A model generated the notes under the pieces. The model worked only from the letters and a program-made list of their open reading frames with translations. It was not told the origin of the DNA and searched no databases. From the NCBI GenBank assembly GCA_005799025.1, contig SYHX01000055.1:21641-85640 (forward strand): 64,000 bases of DNA. Reading direction: 5' to 3'. The translations under genes were made by a program, and so were the position numbers. Source of the DNA: Bacteroidota bacterium (GTDB lineage: Bacteria > Bacteroidota > Bacteroidia > UBA7662). Of the stretch, positions 9,293 to 52,000 are shown one piece after another (the first letter of the stretch is position 1; each line of letters starts with the position of its first letter).

Positions 9293-10312
9293 TTAACGGT
9301 ACAATACCTGCAGCAAGGTCTGACCGACTGCTTTGAGTGTACGCTTCGAAACGATATCCACCTTATCGGCCCGGGTATGCCAATGGGGCGGAAATCCTGT
9401 GGAGCCCTCCGATCGTAAGTCGATAATATCCACCATAGGAATCCCTGCAATGGTATTGACGTAATAATGATCGTCGGTAACTGGCTGACAAGGAACGGAA
9501 ACAAATAAATCTCCATAGCCTAGGGCCTGGGCATTTTGCCAAATTTGTCGGGTCCATTCCGGGGCAAATTGCAAGGAATGCCCCTCCCAGCAAAACCGAG
9601 CATCCACCGCCCCCACCATATCCAACAAAATTCCTTTGGCGGCCCTGTAGCCAGCCGCATGAGGATGCTTGGACCAATATTGGGCTCCAATTCCGTAGGA
9701 ATCCTTGACCTCAGACGCTCCGTAATCTTCCAAATCAAAAAAAACCAAGTCTATCCCCATATCCTTGGGCAATGAATCCAGGTGCCTGCTCAGTTCCAAC
9801 AAAACCGCTACCCCTGAAGCGCCATCGTTCGCTCCATCAAATGTTGCTTTGGGCGTAGCCGGATCCATATCGGCCAAGGGTCGTGTGTCCCAATGGGCCG
9901 CAAGAACCAAACGTTTTTCGGCCTTAGGGTGCAGCGAAGCAATCAGGTTGCGAAGTTCAAAAGTCTTCCCGTCATGCATGGTTAAGCGGTCTTTCTGTTC
10001 AATGACTTGAAGTCCGCGTTGTTTCAAGATTTGGACCATCCAATCCCCGCAATCTCGGTGAGCCTTGGTGCCCGGGATTCGAGGGCCAAATGCAACCTGC
10101 CTTTCAACCCAAGCCAATGCTGAATCTCCTTGAAAATCAGGAACTAAAACCGAGGAAATTTCGCTGGGAAGGGGCTGAGAATCCAGCTCGTTCCCCTTCT
10201 CCTCCCAGCGGCAACTTTGCATAAGAGCAATGCCCACGAAAACAGATAGTAAGAGAATTCTGCGCGCTGGTCTTCTATGGAAACCCGGGATTTTCAAAAC
10301 AAAAAAAATCAT
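9293..10312 (-). CDS. M28 family zinc peptidase (aminopeptidase / glutaminyl-cyclase-like) lipoprotein
   Basis: It carries the motifs LAAHWDTRPLAD, FDGANDGASGVAVLLELSRHL and DLVFFDLEDYG. The likely start is the internal ATG at 10312, which gives a lipoprotein-type signal (MIFFVLK...GIALMQSC) and avoids overlap with the cysS 3' end. Confidence 0.8.
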   Translation of the reverse strand: MIFFVLKIPGFHRRPARRILLLSVFVGIALMQSCRWEEKGNELDSQPLPSEISSVLVPDFQGDSALAWVERQVAFGPRIPGTKAHRDCGDWMVQILKQRGLQVIEQKDRLTMHDGKTFELRNLIASLHPKAEKRLVLAAHWDTRPLADMDPATPKATFDGANDGASGVAVLLELSRHLDSLPKDMGIDLVFFDLEDYGASEVKDSYGIGAQYWSKHPHAAGYRAAKGILLDMVGAVDARFCWEGHSLQFAPEWTRQIWQNAQALGYGDLFVSVPCQPVTDDHYYVNTIAGIPMVDIIDLRSEGSTGFPPHWHTRADKVDIVSKRTLKAVGQTLLQVLYR

Positions 10313-10349
10313 TGCTAGAAACGATACTATTTTACGTTTTCGATTGCGT

Positions 10350-11942
10350 TCAACCCAATGACCACTGACTGCCTTCCTTGCCATCCATCACCTTGATTCC
10401 AGCTTCGTTGAGTGCATTACGAATCAAATCGCTTTGAGCCCAGTTTTTGGAGTCTTTGGCTTGTTGCCTCAAATCCAAAATCAATTTCATGGCAGCTTCC
10501 AAAGCAGGGCTTAAGGAAGCGTCGCAACCTTGATCCGATAAATCGAATCCAAGTATATCCGTAACGTACACTTTGACCGTTCCTACAAGAGCATTCCAAT
10601 CGTCTGGAGTAACCACGGTTTTCCCCGATTTCACGGACTGAAATTCATTCAACAATTCATACCCCAAGGCGATCAAGATTGGTGTGTTAAGGTCATCGTT
10701 CAAGGCGGCGTAAGCTTTGGCTTCAAAAACTGTAATGTTCAAAATACTGCCAGAGTTATCTGCAATCTCCTTCCCCGCAACCGAAGGAGCATCGTTATGC
10801 AATGCTGATGCCGTAGGAGTGTAAGCTATCAACTCTTGAAGGCCTTGGATCCAACGCTTATAACCTTTGGCCGAAGCAGAGAGCGCCCCATCACTGAAAT
10901 CCAAAGTGCTGCGATATTGCGCTTGTAGGATAAAGAAACGAATACTCATAGGATCATAGGCCTGCGATAGCAATGGATGGTTGCCATTAAACAAATCGTC
11001 CAAATTGATGAAATTACCCAAAGACTTACCCATCTTCTGACCATTGATGGTCACCATATTGTTATGAACCCAATATCGGCAAGGAGCGCAGTCATGGCAA
11101 GCCGTCGTTTGAGCCATTTCACTTTCGTGGTGAGGAAAGAGCAAATCCATGCCGCCTCCGTGAATATCAAAAGGCGCATCCAAATACTTCACCCCCATTG
11201 CCGAGCATTCGATATGCCATCCCGGGAATCCAGGTCCCCACGGCGAATTCCAACGCATGATATGCTGCGGCTCAGCATTCTTCCACAGCGCAAAGTCTTC
11301 GGGCTTACGCTTCTCGGACTGACCCGCCAAGGCCCTGCGTTCGTTCCCTGCCCCTGCAACCAATTCATCCACCACTCTTCCGGACAAGACCCCGTATGGA
11401 AATTTAGCGCGGTAGGCTTCCAGATCGAAGTAAACCGACCCAGTGGACTCGTAAGCAAAACCTTTACGAATAAGCTCTTCGATCATTTCGATTTGTTCTG
11501 GGATATGCCCAGAGGCTCTTGGTTCTATCGATGGAGGCTGATTGCCTAACAAATCCATCGCTTTGTGAAAAGCAAGGGTGTAGAGCTGAACCAATTCCAT
11601 GGGCTCAAGCCTCTCCAAACGGGCTCTTTGGGCGATCTTATCCTCACCCTCGTCAGCATCGTCCACCAAATGCCCTACGTCCGTGATATTACGAACATAA
11701 CGGACCTTGTAACCCAAATGCCTCAGGTATCTGCTTAACACATCAAAAGTCACGTAGGGTCGGGCATGCCCCAAATGAGGTGGGCCGTAAACCGTTGGAC
11801 CGCAAACATACATTCCAACATGCGGAGCCTTCAAGGCCATAAAGGGCTCCTTGGTTCTACTCAATGTATTGTAAAGATGCAATGTTCCTATCTTCAGAGT
11901 TGTTCCCTTGGCTGGCGATTCAGAAAATGCAAATTGACTCAT
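10350..11942 (-). CDS. cysS: Cysteine--tRNA ligase
   Basis: Class I aaRS HIGH motif (PHLGHARPYV), KMSKS motif (KMGKSLGN), and MYVCGPTVYG near the N-terminus. Length is 530 aa. Confidence 0.95.
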   Translation of the reverse strand: MSQFAFSESPAKGTTLKIGTLHLYNTLSRTKEPFMALKAPHVGMYVCGPTVYGPPHLGHARPYVTFDVLSRYLRHLGYKVRYVRNITDVGHLVDDADEGEDKIAQRARLERLEPMELVQLYTLAFHKAMDLLGNQPPSIEPRASGHIPEQIEMIEELIRKGFAYESTGSVYFDLEAYRAKFPYGVLSGRVVDELVAGAGNERRALAGQSEKRKPEDFALWKNAEPQHIMRWNSPWGPGFPGWHIECSAMGVKYLDAPFDIHGGGMDLLFPHHESEMAQTTACHDCAPCRYWVHNNMVTINGQKMGKSLGNFINLDDLFNGNHPLLSQAYDPMSIRFFILQAQYRSTLDFSDGALSASAKGYKRWIQGLQELIAYTPTASALHNDAPSVAGKEIADNSGSILNITVFEAKAYAALNDDLNTPILIALGYELLNEFQSVKSGKTVVTPDDWNALVGTVKVYVTDILGFDLSDQGCDASLSPALEAAMKLILDLRQQAKDSKNWAQSDLIRNALNEAGIKVMDGKEGSQWSLG

Positions 11943-17683: not shown

Positions 17684-20566
17684 TTAAGGGGTATGATAGT
17701 TTCTGCCATCCCTATGCCCTGAACTTATTTGTGCGGTGGAATTGGAGGGCTGGTAAGAACCGTTTACATCCCCAGCACACAAGACTGCCCAGCCCAACTG
17801 CACGGAGCTAAGTCCGTTCCAAGTAAATTGAGCGGGTTCAACGAGCCAATCAGCTACTGCAAAATTGTTTATAAGGCCTGTCAAACGCCTGCTAATCAAC
17901 AAAGCATCCGTACCGTTGGTCACCAAATTACCGTTGACATCCCCGGACCTGATACGCAAAGAAGTCCAAGTGATTCCACCGCCGAAATAGCGGGCCACCT
18001 GCAAGGCATCCGATGCATTCACCCCACCCCATAGGCTGAGGGGACTGACTTCAAGCACAAAATCTCCACCGCCACCCTGCGGAACGACAAAGAGATAATT
18101 CCCCAACGTATCCGTGGTATCCACCGCCACCACTTGACCTGTACCTATTCGTCGAAGCCTGCATACTGCCCCTTGCAAATACAAAGGCGGGCTGCGGTCG
18201 TACGAAACACGACCCGAAAGCGTAGGTCCCAGACCGCATAGACGAATCAGCAAAACTTGATTTCCTTGGGCTTGCATGGCCACCGGCATAGGACTTCCCG
18301 AGCTCTGGATCCAATGAGCCCCTATTGCTGTATCCAGCCTCAAAGTTCCCATAGATCCGGCGGTTGTTAAGGACAAAACCAACAAAGACGATGCGTTGGT
18401 TGCCCTTGGCGAACCCGACCACGAAATGGTCCAAGAACCGGCAGCGCTGGTCCATTGGAGCGGTCCCCAAAAGGAATCAACCCATCCGCCTGGTGGTGTC
18501 CCAAAAGAACCAAGATCTCCCACCAATCTAATTTGCCAAGCGATTACCGCCGGCCGGGAGTTGGTCTGTATTCGGAGGATTGCGTTGCTTCCCTGACAAA
18601 CCGAATCCGCCACCATCGAAACACAAGCCGTGCCCAAACTAACCTGCTGAATCAATAGGCTATCGCATCCCCCTATGTTCCTGAGGGTGTCCACGTAGGT
18701 GCCCGATGAGGAAAAAATTCTTCCCCCTGGACCAACCACAGAAACACAGCCTTGCAAGGCAAAGGTGGAATCTGTTGCACGACATCCCGTGAGATTGTTA
18801 TTGCGGGTAACCGTGGAACTGCCTTTGAGGATAATCTGTTCCGGGTCAAGGCTGAAAGTAGAGACTGTTCCTGAAACGCTAAAGGCTTGCACAGTTGTTC
18901 CTGCTTGCAACCATATCGTTTGATTAGGAATCCCTGTATTCGAAAAGGAAAGGCGTATCGGGATTTTGTTCCGAAAAGTTGGAGTGACTGACGGCGTGGT
19001 CACTGATTGAGCCACCTGAACCCACAAATTATTGCCGGATTGATTCCAAGTCAAGCTGTAGGTTGGATGCCCCTGTCCGTAAATCCAATCCTGAAAAAAA
19101 GGCTGTAAATTAATCCCACTCCCCGCTTCCAGGTATTGCCTAAATTCATTGGTGGTTGCAACCGCATGCTGTCTTCCAAGCAAATACTGCCTCGCAGCCC
19201 TGAAGAAAACCGTATCCCCTAACTCATGCCGTAACATATGCAAAACACAAGCCCCCTTTTTGTAAGTCAATGCTGAACTAAATATGCGATTTTCGTCCGC
19301 TCCTGTTGGAACGTAGACCGATGCGTTGGTCACCGATCTTGCCGAGGATTGCGCCGAGGTCATCCAAGAATTTGCGGAACTTTGTCCCAAAGCCGCCTGG
19401 CGGTACAGGTATTCCCCATACGATGCCCAACCCTCATTCAGCCAAATATCACTCCATGTAGCGCAGGTCACAAGATCGCCAAACCACTGATGAGCAAGCT
19501 CATGAGATACCAAATCGGTGCTGAAGCCGCCCATGGTGCTCATGGTCTGGTGTTCCATCCCTCCCCCCAGAGGGGCCATCATGTGGCCATATTTCTCGGT
19601 ACGAAATGGATAGGTTATCCATTGCCCGGAAAAGCGCTCCAGCATATCCGATGTTTGATTCAAATTATTCAACCAGAAGTTGAGGCAGCTCTGTCCCGAA
19701 CTGTTGTTGGCATTGTACACCCAATGTTGAATCAAAACCGAATCCCCCGGAACCGGCCTTGCATAATTCAAATACTCCGTGTAAGGAGCCACCGAAAAGG
19801 CAATCAAATAAAAAGCCTGCGGATAACGGGTCCTCCATTCGAAGCGGCTACGGTTGTTGGGAAGAATTTGGGTGGAAAACAACAAACCGTTGGAAGCTAC
19901 TTTGTTGGGATTGGCACAGGAACCCACGAAATCCACGGAATCAATCTTATCCCAAAGATCCTGTTTACAAGGAAACCAATCCGGCGCTCCAAAGGGCTCG
20001 GATAGGGTCCAAGTCGCACGAACCCCCCAGGTCGAAGAAGCCGCCGAGGTCACCCCTGCAAAGAAACCTGTGCCCGAAGGGATTCCTCCGTAGAAAACCC
20101 TGCATTCAAGATTGGATCCAACCTGCAAGGCCTGGTTCAAAGGAAATTTAACCACCTCTCCTACACGGTTCAATTGAGAGGCCAAATAACGCTGCCCGTT
20201 GAAAACCACCGAATCAATAGTCAAAAACGACCGTAATTCAAACCAAAAAGTATCCATGGCTCCCTGCAGGACAATCGCTTTGAAAAGGACATTGCCACTT
20301 AGGGCAGTTGAAGCCGTGGTTACATTCAAATCAAAACGGTAATAATGAATGTCGTAGACATCTGCTCCCCGGTTGACAGCCGCGGCTCTTCCTAATCCAC
20401 TTTCGTGCCAGAGCCTGCTCCTTTGCATGGCACCTAACTTGGCCTCAGCACAGCCATGCTGTTCAATAGTCTGCGCCCACGAAGGTGAGCATCCAAGGAG
20501 AATGCCAAGCCAAAAAAAAGCTCCTAAGGCAACATGAACTATGCCCTGTGTTTGAATCCCTTTCAT
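17684..20566 (-). CDS. M1 family zinc aminopeptidase (gluzincin) with C-terminal CarboxypepD_reg-like and dockerin-like module
   Basis: Signal peptide, then HELAHQWFGDLVTCATWSDIWLNEGWASYGEY (the HExxH...E zinc site) and GGMEHQTM (GxMEN-like exopeptidase motif). The C-terminal ~110 aa has the pattern WGGVNASDALQVARYF....SGDVNGNLVTNGTDALLISRRL...GDVNGSYQP. The first ATG is at 20566 (the track start is TTG at 20572). Confidence 0.85.
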   Translation of the reverse strand: MKGIQTQGIVHVALGAFFWLGILLGCSPSWAQTIEQHGCAEAKLGAMQRSRLWHESGLGRAAAVNRGADVYDIHYYRFDLNVTTASTALSGNVLFKAIVLQGAMDTFWFELRSFLTIDSVVFNGQRYLASQLNRVGEVVKFPLNQALQVGSNLECRVFYGGIPSGTGFFAGVTSAASSTWGVRATWTLSEPFGAPDWFPCKQDLWDKIDSVDFVGSCANPNKVASNGLLFSTQILPNNRSRFEWRTRYPQAFYLIAFSVAPYTEYLNYARPVPGDSVLIQHWVYNANNSSGQSCLNFWLNNLNQTSDMLERFSGQWITYPFRTEKYGHMMAPLGGGMEHQTMSTMGGFSTDLVSHELAHQWFGDLVTCATWSDIWLNEGWASYGEYLYRQAALGQSSANSWMTSAQSSARSVTNASVYVPTGADENRIFSSALTYKKGACVLHMLRHELGDTVFFRAARQYLLGRQHAVATTNEFRQYLEAGSGINLQPFFQDWIYGQGHPTYSLTWNQSGNNLWVQVAQSVTTPSVTPTFRNKIPIRLSFSNTGIPNQTIWLQAGTTVQAFSVSGTVSTFSLDPEQIILKGSSTVTRNNNLTGCRATDSTFALQGCVSVVGPGGRIFSSSGTYVDTLRNIGGCDSLLIQQVSLGTACVSMVADSVCQGSNAILRIQTNSRPAVIAWQIRLVGDLGSFGTPPGGWVDSFWGPLQWTSAAGSWTISWSGSPRATNASSLLVLSLTTAGSMGTLRLDTAIGAHWIQSSGSPMPVAMQAQGNQVLLIRLCGLGPTLSGRVSYDRSPPLYLQGAVCRLRRIGTGQVVAVDTTDTLGNYLFVVPQGGGGDFVLEVSPLSLWGGVNASDALQVARYFGGGITWTSLRIRSGDVNGNLVTNGTDALLISRRLTGLINNFAVADWLVEPAQFTWNGLSSVQLGWAVLCAGDVNGSYQPSNSTAQISSGHRDGRNYHTP

Positions 20567-20630
20567 ACCCAAAGAAACGTACTTACCTCTCTGGAACGAA
20601 AGATAGAAAATTAAAAAAACTTAAGGCTTC

Positions 20631-31082: not shown

Positions 31083-31169
31083 GGCTTATATCCTCAAAGT
31101 AACCCATACAACCCATGAGTTCACCCTTATGAGCGCAATTTGACTTATTTTTATGACAATCCAATAACC

Positions 31170-34100
31170 ATGAACTATTTGATTTCGCGAAGCAAGGCGC
31201 TTTTGAGCAATATCATTTTTTTCATACTTACCAGCGGCCTAACCGCCTTCAATTCTAACGTGTTTGCGCAAGCACAAAGATCAAGCAGCGGCCCATTTCC
31301 GATGCCTCATCAGGGCGGCGTTCAAGAACTACCTGCTATTCCCGAGAATCCTGAGTCGTTGGCGCAAATTTGGGGCTCTTACCCCTCCTTTGACAGTAGG
31401 ATTTACCTAGCCTTGGGGGTGCACCGTTTACCCAGCACGGCTGAATGGAAAAAAATGGAAGAACTTGGACTGAACTATCAGGGGTATATGCCGCCTTTGG
31501 CGTATTTGGTTTCCGTCCCTGAACAGCCAAGCCCGGCTTTGCTCGAGTATTTGTCCGGTGAACGTGGTCTTTTTGCGGCCTGTGATCTGCTGAGGGTGGA
31601 CGCCAAACGGTCCATGGAGCTGACTCTTCCCTCGGCAGGACCTGGAATTTTGACTAAAAACGGCCTCAAAGGACTGCATATCGTGCTCCATCCTGGTGCG
31701 AACCTTGAAAGGTTCAAGGAATATTTGAGGAGCCTGCCCTTGGTGGAGTCTATGGAGCCTGCACACGGACAATTGGGGTTGAGCCTCTATGCCAATGATA
31801 CGGATGCTGAAATTCTCCTCGCCCACCCAGCCGTTCAATTCATGGAACCTGCCCGAGGGCCAGGAGAACCCGAAGATCGGGAAGCCCGCAGTTTGCATCG
31901 AGGTCACGCCATTGATAATAAAATGGAAGGGGGTACAAGGTATAATGGAAGCGGCATAACGGTTGCCATCGCAGATGATGGCGCCATTGGTCCCCACATT
32001 GATTTTAATGGGAGATTAACGCAATATTCAACCAATACCTCTTCGGCCAATACCCACGGTGATATGGTCTCTGGGATCGCTGTAGGTTCAGGTAATTTGA
32101 ATCCAACCCGGATTGGGGCAGCTTACGGTTCTTACCTGCACATGTACAGTATATCGAGCTACCCCCATATCGCCAATGCAGTTGCTAATTACAACAGCTT
32201 GGGCACGACCCTGACTTCCACATCGTATTCAGAGGTTAACGGCGGGGTTTACAACAGCAGCGCCGTGACTATCGATGGGCAAATTCAAAGCAATGCCATG
32301 TTGATGCATATATTCTCGGCCGGGAATGCTGGCACAGCCGATCATGGTTACGGGGCCGGGACCGGTTGGGGCAACATTACCGGTGGGTACAAGGCCGCCA
32401 AAAATGTAATCGCTGTGGGCAATTTACGCAACACCGATGCGCTCGAAAGCTCATCCAGCAGAGGCCCTGCCAAAGACGGTCGCATCAAACCCGATATCTG
32501 TGCCAACGGATACAACCAAATGTCCACCGCACCCAACAACACCTACCAAACCGGAGGAGGAACCTCAGCGGCATCTCCCTCGGTGATGGGAACCCTTGCC
32601 CAAATCAGCCACGGCTACCGAGCCATGAACAACAATACTGTGCCACCCACAGCCTTGCTCAAAGCAGCCATCCTGAATACCGCTGAAGACTTGGGTAATC
32701 CTGGGCCCGATTATCAATTTGGTTGGGGCCGGATCAACGCATTGCGCGCTATCCAATTGTTACAAAACAACCGTTATGTTACCGGAAATCTTGCAGTCAA
32801 CGATAGTATCAACCATGTCATTGATGTTCCAGCCAATGTTCGCCAATTAAGGGTGATGGTGTATTGGGCCGACTATGCAGGGATCGCCAATGCGACCCGT
32901 GCCTTGGTGAATAACCTTGATCTCAAGGTCCTTACCCCATCCAGCGCAACCCAATTACCTTTGAAATTGGACCCCAGTCCCAATACCGCTTCTTTGAGCA
33001 GTGTTGCGGTACCTGGCCTGGATTCCCTTAATAATGTGGAGCAGGTCCGCATCAACAACCCAGCAGCGGGAACCTATACGGCTCGCATCATGGGTCAAGG
33101 AATTGCACAAGGTCCGCAAGTTTATTGGTTGGTTTACGAATGGCATACCGACCAAATCACCATGACCTATCCCATGGGCGGCGAGTCTTTCGTCAGCGGA
33201 GAAACCGAAATCCTCCGATGGGATGCCACCGGAAATACGGGGCCATTCACCTTGCAATGGAGCTCCAACAACGGACAAAGCTGGACTACGATTGCAAGCA
33301 ATCTGGCAGCATCAGTTCGGCATTACAGCTGGGTGGTGCCTACGGTCACCAGCGGACAAATCAAAATTCGGGTAAGTTCCGGGGCAATCGTCAGTGAAAG
33401 CTCTCAACCTTTGAACATCAGTCCTTTGGTCTCCGGTATTGCCTTTCCTACGGTTTGTTCAACCTCCTTGAGCTTGTCATGGTCCGCCGTATCCGGCGCG
33501 GGTCGTTATGTCATTCATCGCCTAGGTTTAAGGTACATGGACTCCGTGGGCACCACGACCTCTACCACCTTTACAGTCAATGGCACCAACCTCAGTTCGG
33601 AAGATTGGTACGCGATTACCCCCATCGGCACCAACAATGATTGGAGAGGAAGGCGTTCCAATGCAGTGGCCAAACCTTTGACAGGCCCTATCAACTGCGC
33701 GGGGGGTTCCACTATTGGTGGTACCTTGGTTTATGGCAATACGGCTCAAAGCCCCATGACCAATACCATCATCGTGCTCAAACAGAACAATACCGAAATT
33801 GGCAGGGATACCACCGATGCGCAGGGCATTTTCAGGCTTGGTAATAGTCCTGCCGGGACTTATACCTTGGAATACCAGACCAACAAGGCTTGGGGCGGGG
33901 TCAATGCCACCGATGCCTTGGGCATTAACCGGCATTTCAGCAACGTGGCCACGCTGAGTGGATTCTATGCAATGGCAGCCGATCTCAATGCGAGTAATTC
34001 AATCAATGCAACGGACGCATTAATTACTGCTCGTAGATTTTCTAATCTTATAACCAGTATACCCGCAGGGAATTGGATTTTTGAGACAGGAACGTTGAAC

Positions 34101-34190
34101 CTTATCAACGGTGGCACCTACAACAACCTTATACTTAAATCGCTGACTTTCGGGGATGTAAACGGCTCCTATATCCCACCAGGGAATTAA
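31170..34190 (+). CDS. S8 family subtilisin-like serine peptidase with Fn3-like, CarboxypepD_reg-like and dockerin-like C-terminal modules
   Basis: Signal peptide, then catalytic Asp (VAIADDGAIGPHID), His (HGDMVSGIAVG) and Ser (GGGTSAASPSVMG). The C-terminus has an Fn3-like LSLSWSAVSGAGRYVI segment, then TDAQGIFRLGNSPAGTYTLEY, then WGGVNATDALGINRHF....ADLNASNSINATDALITARRF...GDVNGSYIPPGN. The first ATG is at 31170. Confidence 0.9.
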   Translation: MNYLISRSKALLSNIIFFILTSGLTAFNSNVFAQAQRSSSGPFPMPHQGGVQELPAIPENPESLAQIWGSYPSFDSRIYLALGVHRLPSTAEWKKMEELGLNYQGYMPPLAYLVSVPEQPSPALLEYLSGERGLFAACDLLRVDAKRSMELTLPSAGPGILTKNGLKGLHIVLHPGANLERFKEYLRSLPLVESMEPAHGQLGLSLYANDTDAEILLAHPAVQFMEPARGPGEPEDREARSLHRGHAIDNKMEGGTRYNGSGITVAIADDGAIGPHIDFNGRLTQYSTNTSSANTHGDMVSGIAVGSGNLNPTRIGAAYGSYLHMYSISSYPHIANAVANYNSLGTTLTSTSYSEVNGGVYNSSAVTIDGQIQSNAMLMHIFSAGNAGTADHGYGAGTGWGNITGGYKAAKNVIAVGNLRNTDALESSSSRGPAKDGRIKPDICANGYNQMSTAPNNTYQTGGGTSAASPSVMGTLAQISHGYRAMNNNTVPPTALLKAAILNTAEDLGNPGPDYQFGWGRINALRAIQLLQNNRYVTGNLAVNDSINHVIDVPANVRQLRVMVYWADYAGIANATRALVNNLDLKVLTPSSATQLPLKLDPSPNTASLSSVAVPGLDSLNNVEQVRINNPAAGTYTARIMGQGIAQGPQVYWLVYEWHTDQITMTYPMGGESFVSGETEILRWDATGNTGPFTLQWSSNNGQSWTTIASNLAASVRHYSWVVPTVTSGQIKIRVSSGAIVSESSQPLNISPLVSGIAFPTVCSTSLSLSWSAVSGAGRYVIHRLGLRYMDSVGTTTSTTFTVNGTNLSSEDWYAITPIGTNNDWRGRRSNAVAKPLTGPINCAGGSTIGGTLVYGNTAQSPMTNTIIVLKQNNTEIGRDTTDAQGIFRLGNSPAGTYTLEYQTNKAWGGVNATDALGINRHFSNVATLSGFYAMAADLNASNSINATDALITARRFSNLITSIPAGNWIFETGTLNLINGGTYNNLILKSLTFGDVNGSYIPPGN

Positions 34191-40955: not shown

Positions 40956-41012
40956 AGGGATAAGCGTTTAAGACCGACTGCGGGCCAAGGAGTCTGCTTG
41001 TTTGCAGGGGCA

Positions 41013-41375
41013 ATGAGAACCCTGCTTTTACATTACACTGCGCTTGCCACAGCGCTATCGACAGCCCAAGTCTGGGGCCAGACCACAATCCATACACCGC
41101 AAGGCGCTCTTGGGGTATCAGCTCAGGTACGATCCCTGCGCCAATTCTATTGGATTCGCGAATTGCCACCCCATGACGAAACCCCTGGTAACGGAAGAAT
41201 GGGCTACTTCGGCAGCGAAACACCCATTACTCTTCTTTGGAGAAAAGGAAATGAGGCGATTTTAAGGGCCCAATGCCTTCATCCCAATGCATGGTTTAGC
41301 GAACCGGCAGAAAGCCCTATAGATTCATTGCTGAAGAAACGTGTTCATTCCACGATTCAATTGGAAATCGAATGA
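41013..41375 (+). CDS. Hypothetical small secreted protein (first gene of putative pilus-like locus)
   Basis: About 120 aa with a signal-like N-terminus MRTLLLHYTALATALSTAQVWGQ. Its stop overlaps the next ORF's ATG (ATGA). No recognisable domain was found. Confidence 0.35.
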   Translation: MRTLLLHYTALATALSTAQVWGQTTIHTPQGALGVSAQVRSLRQFYWIRELPPHDETPGNGRMGYFGSETPITLLWRKGNEAILRAQCLHPNAWFSEPAESPIDSLLKKRVHSTIQLEIE

Positions 41376-41926
41376 GGGTTTGGGTTTTCTTGCTTATTAT
41401 GTTATGGCATTGGACGGGGGGGGATAATTTCGCCCTCGCCCAAAGAGGGACCGTGCGAGCGCGTATCATGAACGGTTATGCAGGATTGATTTTTGATCAG
41501 GTTGGAACTCCCATTGTCAGCGGAAATCAACAAAGCTACAGCATCGCAATTCATGATTCAAGGACCCTGGTACTTGAAATCGCAGCCCCGGCCAGGACGC
41601 CTTTAATGATTCAAATTCAGCCTGTTACCGAGGTCTGGAACTATTCGGCTTTACCACCCACTTCCATTCCTTTTGTTTGGGAAGCGGCCTTCTGCAACGA
41701 AGGCATTAACGATGAAAGGATGGCAAGGCGTCAAGCTATTCCATTAAATACCAATCAAAATATTTTTCAATTTGAAATGGGTGATTACCAGAACATTCCA
41801 GGTAATCCTGAACCCGTTGAAAACCAGATCAAAGCCTTTTTATATATGTGTGGTCGCTTAGGCCCAGTAGGCCAGGTTACCCCTGGTTATTTCGCCAATT
41901 CCATGAATATCGAGGTTTGGTATTGA
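41372..41926 (+). CDS. Hypothetical secreted protein (candidate minor pilin-like subunit)
   Basis: Clear signal peptide MRVWVFLLIMLWHWTGGDNFALAQ, a beta-rich composition, and the aromatic C-terminus ...NIEVWY. Confidence 0.4.
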   Translation: MRVWVFLLIMLWHWTGGDNFALAQRGTVRARIMNGYAGLIFDQVGTPIVSGNQQSYSIAIHDSRTLVLEIAAPARTPLMIQIQPVTEVWNYSALPPTSIPFVWEAAFCNEGINDERMARRQAIPLNTNQNIFQFEMGDYQNIPGNPEPVENQIKAFLYMCGRLGPVGQVTPGYFANSMNIEVWY

Positions 41927-42015
41927 ACCGCGCCTTAAGCACTCGATATTCATAACACTTTATTAATTGCCCAACCAATCACCTATTTTTTTAACACTTA
42001 ACCCCCCATCCACCC

Positions 42016-42603
42016 ATGAAAAAGACCCTAACAACCAAAAACCTCATGAGCATCAGCCTTGTTGTATCAATGCTTATGGCCCATAGAATGTATGCTCAGA
42101 ACACAGGCGTCATCAACACCAACCTCAATGTTGGTGCAACCGTCCTAGCTCAACTCAAATTAACCAACAATGCGGATGTTCAATTTGGCAATCTATCTGC
42201 GACAACTCCCGGTCATGTTTTCCTATCGCCCACAGGAAGCGGCCACACCAATACCGGGGTCAGCACCTCGGTTGGCAAATTCACGGTGGAAGGATCTACC
42301 ACCGGCTCAGTCAAAGTCACATGGCCTGCCAACATTTCTCTCAACTCCTCGGTAGGAGGCAATACGTTGGTTTACAATTTACAGGTCAACGGAAATGGAA
42401 GCGACCTGGCCTCTGGATCCACCATCCTTGGAACCGGAGGCCTTGGGGTAGCCTCCACGGCAGATATTACCCTTGTGGCCGGCAAATACTACCTCTATGT
42501 AGGGGGAAAAATCGGAGGCAACGCCGGCAGCCCCGCCAATCTCAATGCCCAAGGCATAGGGGTTTATTCCGGTATCGCCAATTTCAGAGCAGAGTACAAT
42601 TGA
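42016..42603 (+). CDS. DUF4402 / spore-coat-protein-U (SCPU)-like secreted protein (candidate major pilin of archaic chaperone-usher system)
   Basis: Signal peptide ...AHRMYAQ. The mature region is low-complexity and rich in G/T/S/N/V with alternating beta pattern (...DVQFGNLSATTPG..., ...LGTGGLGVASTADITLVAGKYYLYVGGKIG...) and ends GIGVYSGIANFRAEYN. This matches my recollection of DUF4402/SCPU family architecture. Confidence 0.5.
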   Translation: MKKTLTTKNLMSISLVVSMLMAHRMYAQNTGVINTNLNVGATVLAQLKLTNNADVQFGNLSATTPGHVFLSPTGSGHTNTGVSTSVGKFTVEGSTTGSVKVTWPANISLNSSVGGNTLVYNLQVNGNGSDLASGSTILGTGGLGVASTADITLVAGKYYLYVGGKIGGNAGSPANLNAQGIGVYSGIANFRAEYN

Positions 42604-42615
42604 TCCTTTCACCAC

Positions 42616-42650
42616 CCCCCTCCTCGGTTGGGTGGAGGGGGATTTATTTA
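42616..42650 (+). terminator. Rho-independent terminator / attenuator hairpin after the DUF4402-like gene
   Basis: An 8-bp all-G/C stem cccccTCC / GGAggggg (42616-42623 paired with 42634-42641) encloses a 10-nt loop (tcggttgggt) and is immediately followed by the T-rich tract atttatttaaat. Confidence 0.5.
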
Positions 42651-42683
42651 AATAAAAAAACTATATATCAAAATACCATCATA

Positions 42684-43550
42684 ATGAACAAAATTATTTT
42701 AGTCATGAGTCTTTATACTGTATCGAATTGGTGCAAAGCGCAGGTGAGTATTGCTCCTACGGGTATCTTGCTGGACCATCAAGGTCAAGGTACCGTCTAT
42801 ATTGGAAACACGGGCAATCAAATCCAGGAAGTTCGTATTCAATTTCTATTCGGGTATCCTGTGCAAGATTCCTTGGGTGAAATTCAAATGATCTATGGCG
42901 ATACGATTCGAGAAAAATCCCATGGACTAGGAAATTCTATCAAAGCCTACCCCTCAGCTTTTACGTTACAACCTCAATCGCAACAAATGGTGAGGCTTCT
43001 TTTGAAGGAACGTCACTTCCGTGAAGAAGGTCTTTACTTCAGCCGAATCAAAATTACCTCTCAAGCAGCAGTGGGGGAGGCTGGAACCATCGACACTGCG
43101 ATGGTAGGCACGAAAGTTGCCTTTCGCTTTGAACAATTCCTGCCTGTGTTCTTCCAAGTTGGCCAACCTGAACCCGATCTTCAGGTATCCCCTCAATCCT
43201 TGCAATCGGATTACCGACACGGAGCTCTACGCTTTGATTATCAATGCGCAAGCAATTCTCCATATTTGGGACAACTGCGTTACCGACTCGTTTCAGCATT
43301 AGCCAATTCATCTACAAGCAACGTTCCTGAACCCTTGGCTAATCAAGAAAAAGTCACAGCATGGAAGGAAATGGAAATTGCATTGTATTTCAACGGTAAT
43401 CGCCGTTGCCTTTTGGCGTGGCCCAACACCCTAGAATCAGGGAAGCACTGTCTTGAACTTGAATTCCATCGAGGGCGCAGTGATTTTCCAGCGCTTGGTG
43501 CTGGAAAGGTTCCTAATTATCGGGGTAAAGTTCACTTTGAATTGCCATGA
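42684..43550 (+). CDS. PapD-like periplasmic pilus chaperone (putative)
   Basis: Signal peptide MNKIILVMSLYTVSNWCKAQ. The mature N-terminus VSIAPTGILLDHQGQGTVYIGNTGNQIQEVRIQF parallels the first-strand region of PapD/FimC/CsuC chaperones (V-S-[LI]-x-[RP]-T-[RG]-[VI]-[IL]...T[LV]x[IV]xNxG). At about 288 aa it is consistent with two Ig-like domains. The first 120 aa of track ORF 42321-43550 are an out-of-frame overlap artefact. Confidence 0.5.
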   Translation: MNKIILVMSLYTVSNWCKAQVSIAPTGILLDHQGQGTVYIGNTGNQIQEVRIQFLFGYPVQDSLGEIQMIYGDTIREKSHGLGNSIKAYPSAFTLQPQSQQMVRLLLKERHFREEGLYFSRIKITSQAAVGEAGTIDTAMVGTKVAFRFEQFLPVFFQVGQPEPDLQVSPQSLQSDYRHGALRFDYQCASNSPYLGQLRYRLVSALANSSTSNVPEPLANQEKVTAWKEMEIALYFNGNRRCLLAWPNTLESGKHCLELEFHRGRSDFPALGAGKVPNYRGKVHFELP

Positions 43551-43560
43551 AACGGAAACG

Positions 43561-46299
43561 ATGTGCAGTACAGAATGTCTTACCCTATGTTATTTTTTAT
43601 GTTCCACTCCCTACGATTCGTTGTCCAATTCCATAAGCCCTCGAGATAGCGTAGAATATCAAGTCTTGGCAAGCTACTCCGGTTACCCTGCAGGTTGGTT
43701 GACCCTCCTCAAAACAGACCAAAGATATTGGTTTCCCCTGAATCTTTGGCTTGAGCAGAGTGGATTTGCGTATTTTCATCCGCTACATAACCAATCCTTT
43801 CACCGATTGCGCCTGCGGAACCCTGTTGATCACAGGATTGGGCAATTCCAAATTGGGGGATACTCTCCCCTGCAATCCAAACCTTGGAAAATATACCATA
43901 GATTCCAGAATATATCTATGAAAAGCAACCCATTGAAGGAATATTTCTTTGATCACCGTCAAACCATATGGGTGAGCAACCATTGGATAGCGTTGCAGTA
44001 CGGCATGGCCACCAAATTCAATGAACCCGCCTTGGAGCTTGATTTTTCGGGGAAGGTCGAGGCGCCCGTAAAGGAATGGAACGATTACCATGCTCGATGG
44101 CTCAAGATAAATGCCATAAAATCTCCGACCCTATTAAAGGATTCGATGGATATTCATCGACCAAAAACAGAAAGTAAATCGATAGAGATTTCTACTTGGT
44201 CTGGACGGTATGAAATCCATTTCCAATCAGGGAAGTTCAACTCCAATATTCAATGGGATGCAGTGGGGCATCTAGGCAAGATTGGTTTTAGGGCCTTTGG
44301 AACTGCCAATGCCATCTTAGAAAGATCGACCAACATTCCAAATTATGAACCAAGAAATGCCCTCACTACAAGGAATACAAAAATAGAATGGCCCAGCCTT
44401 GAACTTGAATGGGCATGGGGATCGCAACAACAAATTAACCTTATTATTTCACCTGCTTCAGTGTCAAGTTTCTGGAAAATAACAGGAGGAAATACGCTTA
44501 TGAGTAGAACGATTGGCTTTGAAGCTCCAAAAGGGATTCATACCCGGCGATGGAAACCTCCCACAGCAATGAGTGAATGGTCTTTCAACCATGGTCCTTT
44601 CATGAATCACCCGCATTTTCCAATGACCACCTCACCCAACGCGAGTAAAGATCGTCTTGATGAAACCAAGGATCTTGTTCCTGTTGCTCTACTCCCCGGA
44701 AGCAACCAAATTGATTATCGGTACAAGAATGCATGGGGAGGAATCTCAAATCGCAGCTTGTTGTGGAATATTCCCGGTTTGATGATACCAGAAGGCCGCT
44801 GGAATTATCGCTATGAATTTTCTGCACCTCTACGGATAAGTGGTATCGTTGGCTACGGCTTAAGGCCTTCTTTAAGTCTTCAATCGGAAGCCATTGTTCA
44901 GCCGGCCAAGGATACAGGCAGAAACCTAGAATGGGATGTCAAAGGCTCCGCCATCTGGACGGCAGGACGAATATTGTATGGACAAAGCCAATATACTGTA
45001 GGCCACGACAATCAAAAATGGGAACAACGTCTTCATTTCTATTTTAGTCAAAGCCTGCAAAGCTCACTCCATTACCAATCATACACCTACTCATTTGATC
45101 CCAAACCAATTGGCGAGTTCTTGAATCTATCAGGACTTTGGATACTCCCAAAAGGTTACGGTCTCAAAATGCTACGTCTTGAATATCCTCTCATGAAGCT
45201 AATTCGGCCCCAACTTCGTCACGAGTTATACCAAGCTATCCTACAATTCGAGGGATGGGGACAGCAATGGCTTTGGCAAATTCCTGAGCACCGTTTATCA
45301 TGGCAAGGAAGAATCCAGCTCAAAGCACCCTCCCTTACCCTGGTATATCAGGCTATCGCTCACCAAGAGGGTTGGCAAGCGTTCGTACAAGGCCACCTGC
45401 GAGGGGGCCACCACTTGGGCGTTTCGTACTCTTTGAACAGGCAGAATACTTCCAACAGGCTCCCAACGACGCAACCAAAGGCAGGGAATTGGGCCTTGGA
45501 ATGGAAGTGGGTGGGGCTTCAAAGCAGCCGATCAGTGCGCGCGCTCCTCAACCGCGAGTCTTCACGATTGGAATACCATGGGCAATTCACCTTATCTCGC
45601 AATAATAACACACTGCCTATCAGCGCGACTAACGGATTAGCGTTGATTCTTCTGGATTTCTACGGAGACCAAAACGCCAATGGAACCAAGGACCCTGATG
45701 AAAATACACTTGATGCATATGGTGCTTTTGATTTGCCCGCGGGAATACCTTACCAATTGCTGGTCAATGGTTCAGCGCTGCTCGGTCCTTTCCCAAATTA
45801 TAACCATGTACGCATTCGGCTCACCCCCCATCATATGCGCAGCCCCGGATGGATTAGCGATCATCTTACAATGGAACTTCATTCCATTCCAAACTCTACC
45901 ATCAAATACCAAATTGCCTTGTTACGAGGTCGGCAAATTTTCGGTACACTCACTTTGGGCAAAATCCCTGCATCCACCATGTCTAATTCCTTGTCAACTA
46001 ACCCCGGAGGAATCCGAATTTACGTCCAACGTTGGGATGAAGGGCCATTATTGGAGTCTTGCCTAAGCGACAGCACGTCTAGCCCCGTATCCCATTCCTG
46101 CAAGCAAACCCTAACCCTTAGCGATGGGTATTTTGAATTCAATGACCTTAGGCCCGGACTCTACAAGGTTTGGGTGGATTGTTCTACCCTTCGCCGATTG
46201 GGATATTCAGGCCATTGTTCTCCGCAAATTCTAGATCTACACCAAGAAGAATCCGTTGAGGTCAATTTTAATTCACCACTAACCTTGGATATTCCCTAA
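43561..46299 (+). CDS. Large beta-rich outer-membrane usher-like protein (putative pilus usher)
   Basis: About 912 aa, located immediately after the chaperone, which is usher-like in size and position. It is aromatic-rich with alternating beta-strand patterns throughout, and its C-terminus has a CarboxypepD_reg / Ig-like beta-sandwich (GYFEFNDLRPGLYKVWVD). The start is uncertain: the ATG at 43561 has a weak signal peptide, and the reading frame stays open upstream to 43453, overlapping the chaperone. Confidence 0.4.
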   Translation: MCSTECLTLCYFLCSTPYDSLSNSISPRDSVEYQVLASYSGYPAGWLTLLKTDQRYWFPLNLWLEQSGFAYFHPLHNQSFHRLRLRNPVDHRIGQFQIGGYSPLQSKPWKIYHRFQNISMKSNPLKEYFFDHRQTIWVSNHWIALQYGMATKFNEPALELDFSGKVEAPVKEWNDYHARWLKINAIKSPTLLKDSMDIHRPKTESKSIEISTWSGRYEIHFQSGKFNSNIQWDAVGHLGKIGFRAFGTANAILERSTNIPNYEPRNALTTRNTKIEWPSLELEWAWGSQQQINLIISPASVSSFWKITGGNTLMSRTIGFEAPKGIHTRRWKPPTAMSEWSFNHGPFMNHPHFPMTTSPNASKDRLDETKDLVPVALLPGSNQIDYRYKNAWGGISNRSLLWNIPGLMIPEGRWNYRYEFSAPLRISGIVGYGLRPSLSLQSEAIVQPAKDTGRNLEWDVKGSAIWTAGRILYGQSQYTVGHDNQKWEQRLHFYFSQSLQSSLHYQSYTYSFDPKPIGEFLNLSGLWILPKGYGLKMLRLEYPLMKLIRPQLRHELYQAILQFEGWGQQWLWQIPEHRLSWQGRIQLKAPSLTLVYQAIAHQEGWQAFVQGHLRGGHHLGVSYSLNRQNTSNRLPTTQPKAGNWALEWKWVGLQSSRSVRALLNRESSRLEYHGQFTLSRNNNTLPISATNGLALILLDFYGDQNANGTKDPDENTLDAYGAFDLPAGIPYQLLVNGSALLGPFPNYNHVRIRLTPHHMRSPGWISDHLTMELHSIPNSTIKYQIALLRGRQIFGTLTLGKIPASTMSNSLSTNPGGIRIYVQRWDEGPLLESCLSDSTSSPVSHSCKQTLTLSDGYFEFNDLRPGLYKVWVDCSTLRRLGYSGHCSPQILDLHQEESVEVNFNSPLTLDIP

Positions 46300-49989: not shown

Positions 49990-50427
49990 ATGTCCGATAC
50001 CCAACGCAACGTTCTCAAAACCAAAGTACATGACGCCGACGTTTTGGCTTTTATTGACTCCTTTGCCTCAACCGACCAAAAACGACAGGACAGCCTCGAC
50101 ATTATCGCGCTCATGTCCAAAGTGAGCGGTTTCCCGCCCAAAATGTGGGGTGCAAGCATGATCGGCTTTGGCGCCTATCATTACAAATCCGAAAAAAGCC
50201 GACAAGAGGGAGATTGGTTCCTGTTGGGATTTTCCCCCCGTAAGGCCGCCATATCCCTCTACGTGTACACAGGTTCTCCTGAGCATGCCAGCCTTCTGGA
50301 AGGATTGGGCAAATTCAAAGCCGCCAAAGCCTGCTTGCACATCCAAAAATTAGCCGATATTGACCAGGCCGTGTTGACCAAGCTCATGAAAACGACCATT
50401 GCTTTTCTCCAAAAAAAGTACCCTTAG
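49990..50427 (+). CDS. DUF1801 (YdhG/YdeI-like) domain protein
   Basis: A 145-aa protein matching the pattern VLAFIDSFASTDQKRQDSLDIIALMSKVSGFPPKMWGASMIGFGAYHYKSEKSRQEGDWFLLGFSPRKAAISLYV, typical of DUF1801. Confidence 0.6.
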   Translation: MSDTQRNVLKTKVHDADVLAFIDSFASTDQKRQDSLDIIALMSKVSGFPPKMWGASMIGFGAYHYKSEKSRQEGDWFLLGFSPRKAAISLYVYTGSPEHASLLEGLGKFKAAKACLHIQKLADIDQAVLTKLMKTTIAFLQKKYP

Positions 50428-50431
50428 CGCA

Positions 50432-52000
50432 ATGCCTTTAACCGTGAAAGCTAATTTTTGGCCTATTTACTTCTTCGTAGGTCATCTGTTGTTATGCTAT
50501 GTAAATATAAGCAAGGCTCAAATGCCTGCGGGGCGTATTCTTGCAGGGTATTATCATAATTGGAATACCGCATCTGCACCTCATGTACCTCTGGATCAAT
50601 CCCATAATGCGTACAATCTTATTCATGTCGCCTTTGCCACTCCAATTCCCGGAACTTTGTACAAAATGGAATTCAATCCAGTAATGTACAATCCTACAAA
50701 TTTCAAAACTCAAATTCAAACGGTACAAGCCGCTGGCAAAAAGGTATTCATTAGCCTTGGAGGGGGTCTACACCCGGTGCGCATGGTGAATCTTGCCCAA
50801 AAAGACACCTTTGTAAATACCATATCCGCTATTTTGGATTATTACGGATTTGATGGTATCGATATTGATTTTGAGGGAACTTCGTTATTGGCCGCTGGTA
50901 ATAACATCAACCAACCTGCAGATTCCGGTGCCCATTACCTCATTCGCGCAATCCGACAACTTATGGAGCGTCATCGCAACATATATCAGCGAAAGTTAGG
51001 CCTCACGATGGCTCCAGAAACAGCTTTTGTTCAGGGCGGTATGGCCGCGTATGGAGGTATTTGGGGAGCATATCTACCCGTTATTCAAGCACTTAGAGAT
51101 TCGTTGGACCTTATGCAGGTACAACTCTACAATTCTGGTACTATGCCAGCGCTTAATGGTCAGAACTATGCAGCAGGTACCGCAGATTTTATTGTGGCCC
51201 TCTCAGAGGCTTTAATTAGGGGATTCCAAACCTCAGGGGGCTTGTTTCTTGGCCTGCGACCCCAGCAAATTGCTGTTGGTCTCCCCGCCTGTCCTATGGC
51301 GGCAGGTTCAGGCTATACCGATACCACCACGGTAGGTGCTGCAATGCGTTATTTGTTAGGAAGAGGCCCACGAACCGGACAATATATTTTAATCCAGAAC
51401 GGCGGTTATCCTCAACTGGGTGGGATGATGACATGGAGCATCCCTTGGGATGCTACGGCATCATGTGCAGTCCCCTATGAATTTGCACATCAATTTCAGC
51501 GGATTTTTTCATTATCACCTCCGGTTTTTGGTAGAACCCTGTATGCCAATAGTGCTCTAACCCCCTTATCTAATACAAGTATTCGTCTTGTGCAACAAAA
51601 CCTTGCCTTTGCTTCAGATACTACAGATTTTATGGGAAATTTTGATTTAGGATATATTACTCCTGGTTCTTATGGTATTGAATACCGAACATCCGTGCTT
51701 TGGGGCGGAGTCAATGCAACAGATGCATTGTTAACTGCCAGGCATTTCAGTAACATTTCTCTGTTGAACGGGATTCATCTGCAAGCGGCGGACGTCAACG
51801 CTTCAGGAACCGTGAATGCTACCGATGCCCTGACGATATCCCGCAGATTTTCCAATTTGATTCCTAATTTTCCGGCAGGCGACTGGCTATGGGAAAACAG
51901 AACCCTCCTGGTAGGACCTGGTGGAAATTACCAGAATTTAGTATGGCGCGGACTTACCTTTGGAGATGTCAATGGGTCGTATATTCCAAACGCATTATAA
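50432..52000 (+). CDS. Glycoside hydrolase family 18 (chitinase-like) with C-terminal CarboxypepD_reg-like and dockerin-like module
   Basis: Signal peptide (…CYVNISKAQ) followed by the GH18 catalytic motif in YYGFDGIDIDFEG (DxxDxDxE). The C-terminus reads DTTDFMGNFDLGYITPGSYGIEY...WGGVNATDALLTARHF....ADVNASGTVNATDALTISRRF...GDVNGSYIPNAL. Confidence 0.8.
   Translation: MPLTVKANFWPIYFFVGHLLLCYVNISKAQMPAGRILAGYYHNWNTASAPHVPLDQSHNAYNLIHVAFATPIPGTLYKMEFNPVMYNPTNFKTQIQTVQAAGKKVFISLGGGLHPVRMVNLAQKDTFVNTISAILDYYGFDGIDIDFEGTSLLAAGNNINQPADSGAHYLIRAIRQLMERHRNIYQRKLGLTMAPETAFVQGGMAAYGGIWGAYLPVIQALRDSLDLMQVQLYNSGTMPALNGQNYAAGTADFIVALSEALIRGFQTSGGLFLGLRPQQIAVGLPACPMAAGSGYTDTTTVGAAMRYLLGRGPRTGQYILIQNGGYPQLGGMMTWSIPWDATASCAVPYEFAHQFQRIFSLSPPVFGRTLYANSALTPLSNTSIRLVQQNLAFASDTTDFMGNFDLGYITPGSYGIEYRTSVLWGGVNATDALLTARHFSNISLLNGIHLQAADVNASGTVNATDALTISRRFSNLIPNFPAGDWLWENRTLLVGPGGNYQNLVWRGLTFGDVNGSYIPNAL

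Follow-up and report, generated by a model that had tools for sequence, protein, structure and literature searches.

Textbooks describe cohesin-dockerin assemblies as features of the cellulosomes of Gram-positive bacteria; to our knowledge, their role in diderm Bacteroidota has seen essentially no experimental tests. Here we analyzed a module of about 165 amino acids (aa) found at the C-termini of three hydrolases, a GH18 family glycosidase, an S8 subtilase and an M1 aminopeptidase, encoded in 64,000 nucleotides of a Bacteroidota bacterium (assembly GCA_005799025.1, contig SYHX01000055.1, positions 21,641 to 85,640; this whole stretch is called the window, and coordinates refer to it). Like the type I dockerins of cellulosomes (PF00404; Clostridium thermocellum Xyn10B, 1ohz and 2ccl), the module gives a Pfam-level match, has a predicted three-helix fold with two symmetric segments, and is placed C-terminally on diverse hydrolases. 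A cellulosomal dockerin, however, is a free-standing domain of 60-70 aa, whereas that of the window module appears to be inserted in a β-sandwich, and its first calcium loop seems to be split: positions 6-12 come first, and about 85 residues separate them from positions 1-5 further downstream. The hosts differ as well, a diderm Bacteroidota instead of a Firmicute. The XDoc dyad of type II dockerins (C. thermocellum CipA, 3kcp and 5g5d) consists of tandem contiguous modules, unlike the window dockerin, which is predicted to be nested in the sandwich and to share a calcium loop with the chain end.

Two other known elements are relevant. The type A C-terminal domain (CTD) of type IX secretion system (T9SS) substrates (TIGR04183/PF18962) is, like our module, a C-terminal β-sandwich on secreted hydrolases of Bacteroidota, but it has no sequence match to the module and, in relatives of the window proteins, the true CTD comes after the module. 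The non-cellulosomal cohesin 2xdh, which we take to be that of Archaeoglobus fulgidus, presumably from a parent protein with both cohesin and dockerin, is the only solved structure matched by the profile of a cohesin-like domain found in these relatives; it is distant in sequence and, unlike the relatives' proteins, has neither a T9SS CTD nor a dockerin nested in a β-sandwich.

In 'Ca. Stygibacter' of the Cloacimonadota, GH18, S8 and C25 enzymes carry a C-terminal dockerin, and a cohesin scaffoldin with a T9SS-type CTD was proposed, by genome inference only, to provide surface attachment (Williams et al. 2021, PMC8542988). The logic is the same as in the relatives of our module and the cargo set is similar; the phylum, however, differs, and nesting or splitting of the dockerin is not mentioned there. 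Dockerins were also reported in rumen Bacteroidetes (PMC6487960), and non-cellulosomal dockerins and cohesins in Bacteroidetes had already been noted before. The literature we searched gave no account of dockerins that are nested or permuted, nor of proteins lacking a CTD being co-exported by the T9SS. We found three features undescribed there: a dockerin nested in a β-sandwich, a first calcium loop in two parts, and the recurrent arrangement of module, cohesin and CTD in Bacteroidota.

The shared module and its predicted fold

The three open reading frames (ORFs) of the preliminary description were present as it had stated. The GH18 gene lies at 50432..52000 on the forward strand, with an alternative TTG start at 50399; public gene calls give a 522-aa product from the ATG at 50432, on 7 contigs. 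The S8 subtilase gene occupies 31140..34190 (forward strand) and the M1 aminopeptidase gene 17684..20572 (reverse strand). Their catalytic parts are unrelated, matching Pfam Glyco_hydro_18 (47.5 bits), Peptidase_S8 (109.7 bits) and Peptidase_M1 (110.5 bits), respectively. A Sec-type signal peptide could be read at the N-terminus of each protein (…LLLCYVNISKAQ in GH18 and …LTAFNSNVFAQ in S8). The M1 protein also has a lipobox-like LLGC at residues 25-28, from which it may be a lipoprotein.

The modules, at 51503-51997 (GH18, forward), 33693..34187 (S8, forward) and 17753..18241 (M1, reverse), share pairwise identities of 51%, 39% and 32%, with 46 invariant columns and no large gaps, and a six-frame scan of the window with a hidden Markov model (HMM) found exactly these three copies. 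A profile of the three-sequence alignment retrieved 100 database proteins with E-values down to 7e-70, mainly fragments from uncultured Bacteroidota, and 136 relatives in a scan of species-representative genomes. These data bear out the earlier claim of a homologous domain, and chance or compositional similarity was ruled out by the invariant columns together with the E-values. The copies were thus real, although the range first given for M1, 17684-18080, had missed the N-terminal strands.

The middle part of the module had been taken for a dockerin, and this held. Pfam Dockerin_1 scored above its gathering cut-off (22.9 bits) in all three proteins, with 34.6 bits in GH18, 24.7 in S8 and 29.3 in M1, and by sequence the module profile matched the solved dockerins 1ohz_B, 2ccl_B, 4dh2_B and 8x39_A. 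In each protein the Dockerin_1 match spanned profile positions 8 to 55 or 56, so that the first seven positions were absent. CarboxypepD_reg (PF13620) stayed below its gathering score, with 22.2 against 32.3 bits in S8 and none listed for GH18 and M1; the threshold was passed in some relatives (34.3-34.4 bits). The match to this family ended at profile position ~55, and the dockerin begins at just that point.

An AlphaFold2 model of the GH18 module, built on a 63-sequence alignment, reached a predicted local distance difference test score (pLDDT) of 95.9 and a predicted template modelling score (pTM) of 0.88. Its order is five β-strands (residues 7-63), three helices (72-116), three β-strands (128-152) and then GDVNGSY, a terminal block modelled at pLDDT ~98. 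The M1 module, the most divergent copy, gave an identical order of strands and helices in a separate model (pLDDT 91.5, pTM 0.81). The modelled three-helix part has the dockerin fold, superposing on solved dockerins at 1.2-1.8 Å, and the remainder is predicted to form a seven-strand, prealbumin-like sandwich of the CarboxypepD_reg/transthyretin-like type. The models therefore show a type I dockerin of 58 residues placed in the loop between strands five and six of this sandwich, and the architecture first proposed, a CarboxypepD_reg domain followed by degenerate dockerin repeats, has to be replaced by one in which the dockerin lies inside the sandwich. Covariation among 163 sequences paired helix 1 with helix 3 (78-112, 79-113/117), strand E with the strands after the dockerin (63-130, 63-150), and the end of the insert with the residue preceding the terminal motif (125-153); the analysis was simple and not rigorous, and the last three pairs are suggestive of the nested topology.

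On the DNA, strands A-E of the GH18 module (module residues 7-63) are encoded at 51521..51691, the dockerin insert at 51704..51877, the strands after it (residues 127-153) at 51881..51961, and GDVNGSY at 51962..51982. The corresponding parts of the S8 module are at 33711-33881, 33894-34067, 34071-34151 and 34152-34172, and those of the M1 module, on the reverse strand, at 18041-18223, 17855-18028, 17774-17851 and 17753-17773. The M1 protein continues past GDVNGSY with a basic tail of 22 aa (QPSNSTAQISSGHRDGRNYHTP; 17687-17752, reverse strand), which was modelled with low confidence (pLDDT 60-66); similar tails occur in the orthologues P0005, P0008, P0009 and P0064. Module position 152, two residues before GDVNGSY, is Cys in 81 of the 99 modules from genomes on which our counts of architecture and conservation rest. 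It has no constant partner Cys (C63 is found in just 16 modules), and in the window it is Thr in GH18 (51956-51958) and S8 and Cys in M1 (17777-17779).

The first calcium loop

The second segment of the dockerin is intact, whereas the first begins only at position 6 of its calcium loop. In GH18, the segment opens with GGVNATD (51704-51724), the proposed positions 6-12 of loop 1, and DVNGS of the terminal GDVNGSY would supply positions 1-5. Joined, these five and seven residues give DVNGSGGVNATD, an EF-hand-type loop of 12 residues that is nearly the same as the intact loop 2, DVNASGTVNATD, at 51791-51826 (loop 2 of S8 is at 33981-34016 and that of M1 at 17906-17941). The terminal motif is better conserved than loop 2: its G and D are present in 99 of 99 modules, its N/D in 99 and its S in 98.

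We then placed xGDVNGS before GGVNATD in silico and rescored Dockerin_1 against the isolated insert. The score rose from 40.9 to 55.4 bits in GH18, where the match now started at profile position 2, from 30.7 to 45.2 bits in S8 and from 35.7 to 51.1 bits in M1. The gain was thus 14.5-15.4 bits in all three, and the match ran without gaps from profile position 1-2 instead of 8. WGGVNATD and GDVNGSY had been described as two degenerate half-sites; by conservation and by this re-joining they are better read as complementary halves of one loop. The complementarity is shown at the level of sequence, and it suggests that GDVNGS and GGVNATD come together as one calcium site in three dimensions. GDVNGSY was also considered as a C-terminal sorting motif and rejected, because it is equally conserved where it stands at internal positions.

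According to this arrangement, the insertion point would be the first calcium loop of the dockerin itself: strand E leads into positions 6-12, and the chain would reach positions 1-5 only at the module end, once the last β-strand has been passed. Closure of the sandwich would therefore have to precede formation of calcium site 1. The arrangement also accounts for the fact that Pfam sees a dockerin cut at position 8 and a CarboxypepD_reg domain cut at position ~55 in hundreds of proteins.

Relatives of the module, cohesins and T9SS anchors

Databases already name these proteins 'dockerin type I domain-containing'. The nearest relatives, at 78-81% identity, come from freshwater metagenome-assembled genomes (MAGs), namely RFMW01 ('Sphingobacteriia LLD_074'), VHBD01 and VHAW01. 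The latter two, titled 'Sphingomonadales bacterium', hold near-identical orthologues of the window GH18 and S8 genes (L002, L003, L006, L007; the S8 orthologues are L004-L007), and since these genes are of Bacteroidota type, the label is probably wrong. Other relatives belong to Bacteroidales, Lentimicrobiaceae, Prolixibacteraceae and Ignavibacteriales, and two carriers are in culture, Alkalitalea saponilacus DSM 24412 and Natronoflexus pectinivorans DSM 24179.

Two architectures prevailed. The module stands at the extreme C-terminus, as in the window, in 29 of the 99, and it is followed by a constant tail of ~220-238 aa in 53; both forms coexist in single genomes such as RA.bin97. The tail is made up of a cohesin-like domain followed by a canonical T9SS type A CTD, and five tails were scored. 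For the CTD, TIGR04183 exceeded its cut-off in all five. The cohesin-like domain gave 17-23.7 bits with Pfam Cohesin in three of the five (cut-off 24.1), and the only match of its profile in the PDB was 2xdh_A, annotated 'COHESIN' (E 3e-6). A T9SS CTD is always at the extreme C-terminus, and the module is not, being internal and before the true CTD in the tailed proteins. In the GH18, S8 and M1 proteins of the window, no T9SS CTD model of type A or of type B (TIGR04131/PF13585) gave a match at E<=1 in NCBIfam or Pfam, while the same libraries do pick up the CTDs in the relatives' tails, and our own CTD profile likewise matched none of the three, so the window proteins do lack a canonical CTD, as the preliminary description had held.

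Cohesins were also found next to the module genes. In several genomes, including those of the cultured A. saponilacus and N. pectinivorans, the genes directly downstream encode proteins with one to four cohesin-like domains and no module. The A. saponilacus neighbor (L032), a scaffoldin-like protein of 1206 aa encoded at L032:7171-10788 next to a module protein of 1773 aa at L032:1849-7167, scored 55.5 bits with Cohesin and 42.2 bits with Por_Secre_tail, and cohesin-bearing partners are likewise encoded at L044 (also 55.5 bits), L010 and L016. At L010, a gene for an adaptor with three cohesins and a module is followed by genes for a GH13 amylase and an S8 protease with terminal modules; cohesin and dockerin genes are clustered here, and the enzymes are built like those of the window. 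By sequence, then, dockerin identity and, in relatives, fusion and genomic linkage to cohesins and CTDs are shown. Proteins of ~470 aa at L015, L045, L056 and L079 consist of a signal peptide region, the module, the cohesin-like domain and the T9SS CTD, with no enzyme, and such plug-and-socket proteins could form head-to-tail chains on the cell surface.

Both dockerin segments retain N9, D12, A13, L14, R/K18 and F/Y20, and their variation falls on residues 10, 11, 17 and 18, which set cohesin specificity in cellulosomal type I dockerins. Judged from the retained residues, the helix surfaces by which cellulosomal dockerins bind cohesins, with their two-fold symmetry, appear to be kept. Upstream of the module, 73 relatives carry 52 Pfam families as cargo, including Peptidase_C25, M14, S8, GH18, polysaccharide deacetylase, purple acid phosphatase, PKD, HYR, SprB and GBD_T9SS_assoc, a repertoire typical of surface or T9SS proteins.

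An exhaustive profile search gave 3214 proteins at E<=1e-30. This number does not measure the nested family, because the top matches are giant proteins with dozens of CarboxypepD_reg-type repeats, and it was not used as a count; P0101-P0146, for example, are up to 7796 aa long and have 20-70 such repeats. Single variants were also seen: P0147 (616 aa) has three full modules in tandem, and in L075 (protein segment 1-7587, from a MAG labelled Chitinophaga pinensis) the module is interrupted. There, residues 1980-2136 match HMM positions 8-162, and positions 141-184 appear again at 2255-2298, so that an extra insertion precedes the terminal motif.

Function of the module and its setting in the source organism

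We favor the reading that the module is a calcium-dependent cohesin-docking unit, by which the three hydrolases would be tethered to surface proteins that bear cohesins and whose genes lie in other parts of the genome, and we give it a probability of roughly 0.55. The three enzymes would be held non-covalently by the cohesin domains of cell-surface proteins; in related Bacteroidota such partners appear to be T9SS substrates with a type A CTD. Several results weigh against this reading. No cohesin-like domain was found within the window (our own cohesin profile at E<=10, and Pfam on unassigned ORFs); no cohesin-like domain, further module or CTD was found with our own profiles in the 10 kb beyond each window end; the window, those 10-kb extensions and the regions flanking the closest relatives' loci gave neither a T9SS CTD nor a T9SS component; and those flanking regions had no cohesin-like domain. 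Only GH18 and S8 orthologues with a terminal module and no CTD were seen at the closest relatives' loci. The cohesin-like domain of the tails falls just short of the Pfam cut-off, and when the dockerin was deleted in silico and the flanking strands were joined, the CarboxypepD_reg match did not extend across the junction. In addition, many non-cellulosomal dockerins have, as far as we know, no known partner. For the window enzymes, cohesin binding itself is inferred, and, with neither cohesin nor CTD nearby and only terminal-module forms seen, so are the partner in the source organism and the route by which the CTD-less enzymes cross the outer membrane.

These negative results would suit an orphan dockerin, that is, a lineage without a cohesin partner in which the module is a calcium-stabilised structural or spacer domain or binds another ligand (a surface glycan, lipopolysaccharide or the substrate, for example). 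Sandwiches of the CarboxypepD_reg/CnaB type are common structural spacers, and this type is repeated dozens of times in giant surface proteins. However, the helices retain the symmetric cohesin-binding pattern, the link between module and cohesin is tight across the family, both by fusion and by gene neighborhood, and the source genome was examined over ~84 kb only (the window and 10 kb on each side). We therefore regard the orphan as possible, with clearly lower odds than docking. The preliminary description had left open a cohesin-receptor surface complex or a novel secretion tag, and the fusions and neighborhoods favor the former. A tag, by which the T9SS or another outer-membrane translocon would recognize the module in place of a CTD, would suit its position at the C-terminus of the three window proteins and 29 of the 99 relatives, its CTD-like β-sandwich, the terminal-module proteins that have GBD_T9SS_assoc domains and no CTD, and the requirement of Sec-exported enzymes for some outer-membrane route if they act outside the cell. 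It is improbable because in most relatives the module, GDVNGSY included, is internal and is then followed by a real, canonical CTD.

Just as improbable, in our estimate, is tethering within the periplasm, whereby a dockerin bound to a periplasmic partner would keep the enzymes in that compartment or at the inward-facing side of the outer membrane. The M1 and S46-type peptidases of Bacteroidota are often periplasmic, and the lack of a CTD and the lipobox-like LLGC of the M1 protein would agree with such a location, but the cohesin partners in relatives carry T9SS CTDs and are therefore destined for the cell surface, and the cargo spectrum is typical of surface proteins. A more elaborate form of cohesin docking is that the module works as a calcium-gated clasp, becoming competent for binding once the sandwich folds around calcium, and that the T9SS carries the CTD-less enzymes as hitchhikers, which would first bind, in the periplasm, to the cohesins of CTD-bearing T9SS substrates and then be co-exported as folded complexes. 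We consider this proposal speculative and rather unlikely as a whole.

The window is contained in a 120-kb contig (SYAF01000237.1, GCA_005787695.1). The genes between the three hydrolases read as housekeeping genes (mutL, ftsK, cysS, purL, menFDB, purEK and lnt, from ORF translations, some confirmed by Pfam). About 4 kb past the left window end (L086:6004-8349) is a gene whose product belongs to the CotH-kinase family (168.9 bits), contains a lamin-tail-like domain and a choice-of-anchor X motif, and has a C-terminus that looks like a type A CTD (…SPNPF…AGLYTLHW…KLVKGT); this end scored 15.6 bits with TIGR04183, below the 23-bit cut-off, and gives a hint that the organism may use the T9SS. On the forward strand, 40998-46299 encodes three small secreted proteins (125, 184 and 195 aa), the last with a DUF4402 match (30.7 bits), followed by a 948-aa protein that has no Pfam family and ends in a CarboxypepD_reg/SdrD_B-like segment; the cluster looks like a DUF4402 fimbria/usher-type locus for a surface structure. 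Exported peptidases are abundant, with an S46 dipeptidyl-peptidase (3704-5893), M28 (9293-10384), M1 (17684-20572) and S8 (31140-34190) in the window and an M16 just outside it (L086:3055-4311), and only the M1 and S8 enzymes among them bear the module. This richness suggests a proteolytic, chitin- or glycan-scavenging lifestyle.

Taken together, the module family ties dockerins, cohesins and T9SS anchors together in many Bacteroidota genomes, and, because A. saponilacus and N. pectinivorans can be cultured, the cohesin-dockerin question becomes experimentally approachable in this phylum. An EF-hand-type loop split by a domain insertion, if that is what the module holds, would be an unusual coupling of the folding of two domains to calcium, and the module could become a compact engineered docking tag. 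If enzymes indeed hitchhike by such a clasp, it would provide Bacteroidota with a self-assembling, cellulosome-like enzyme coat.

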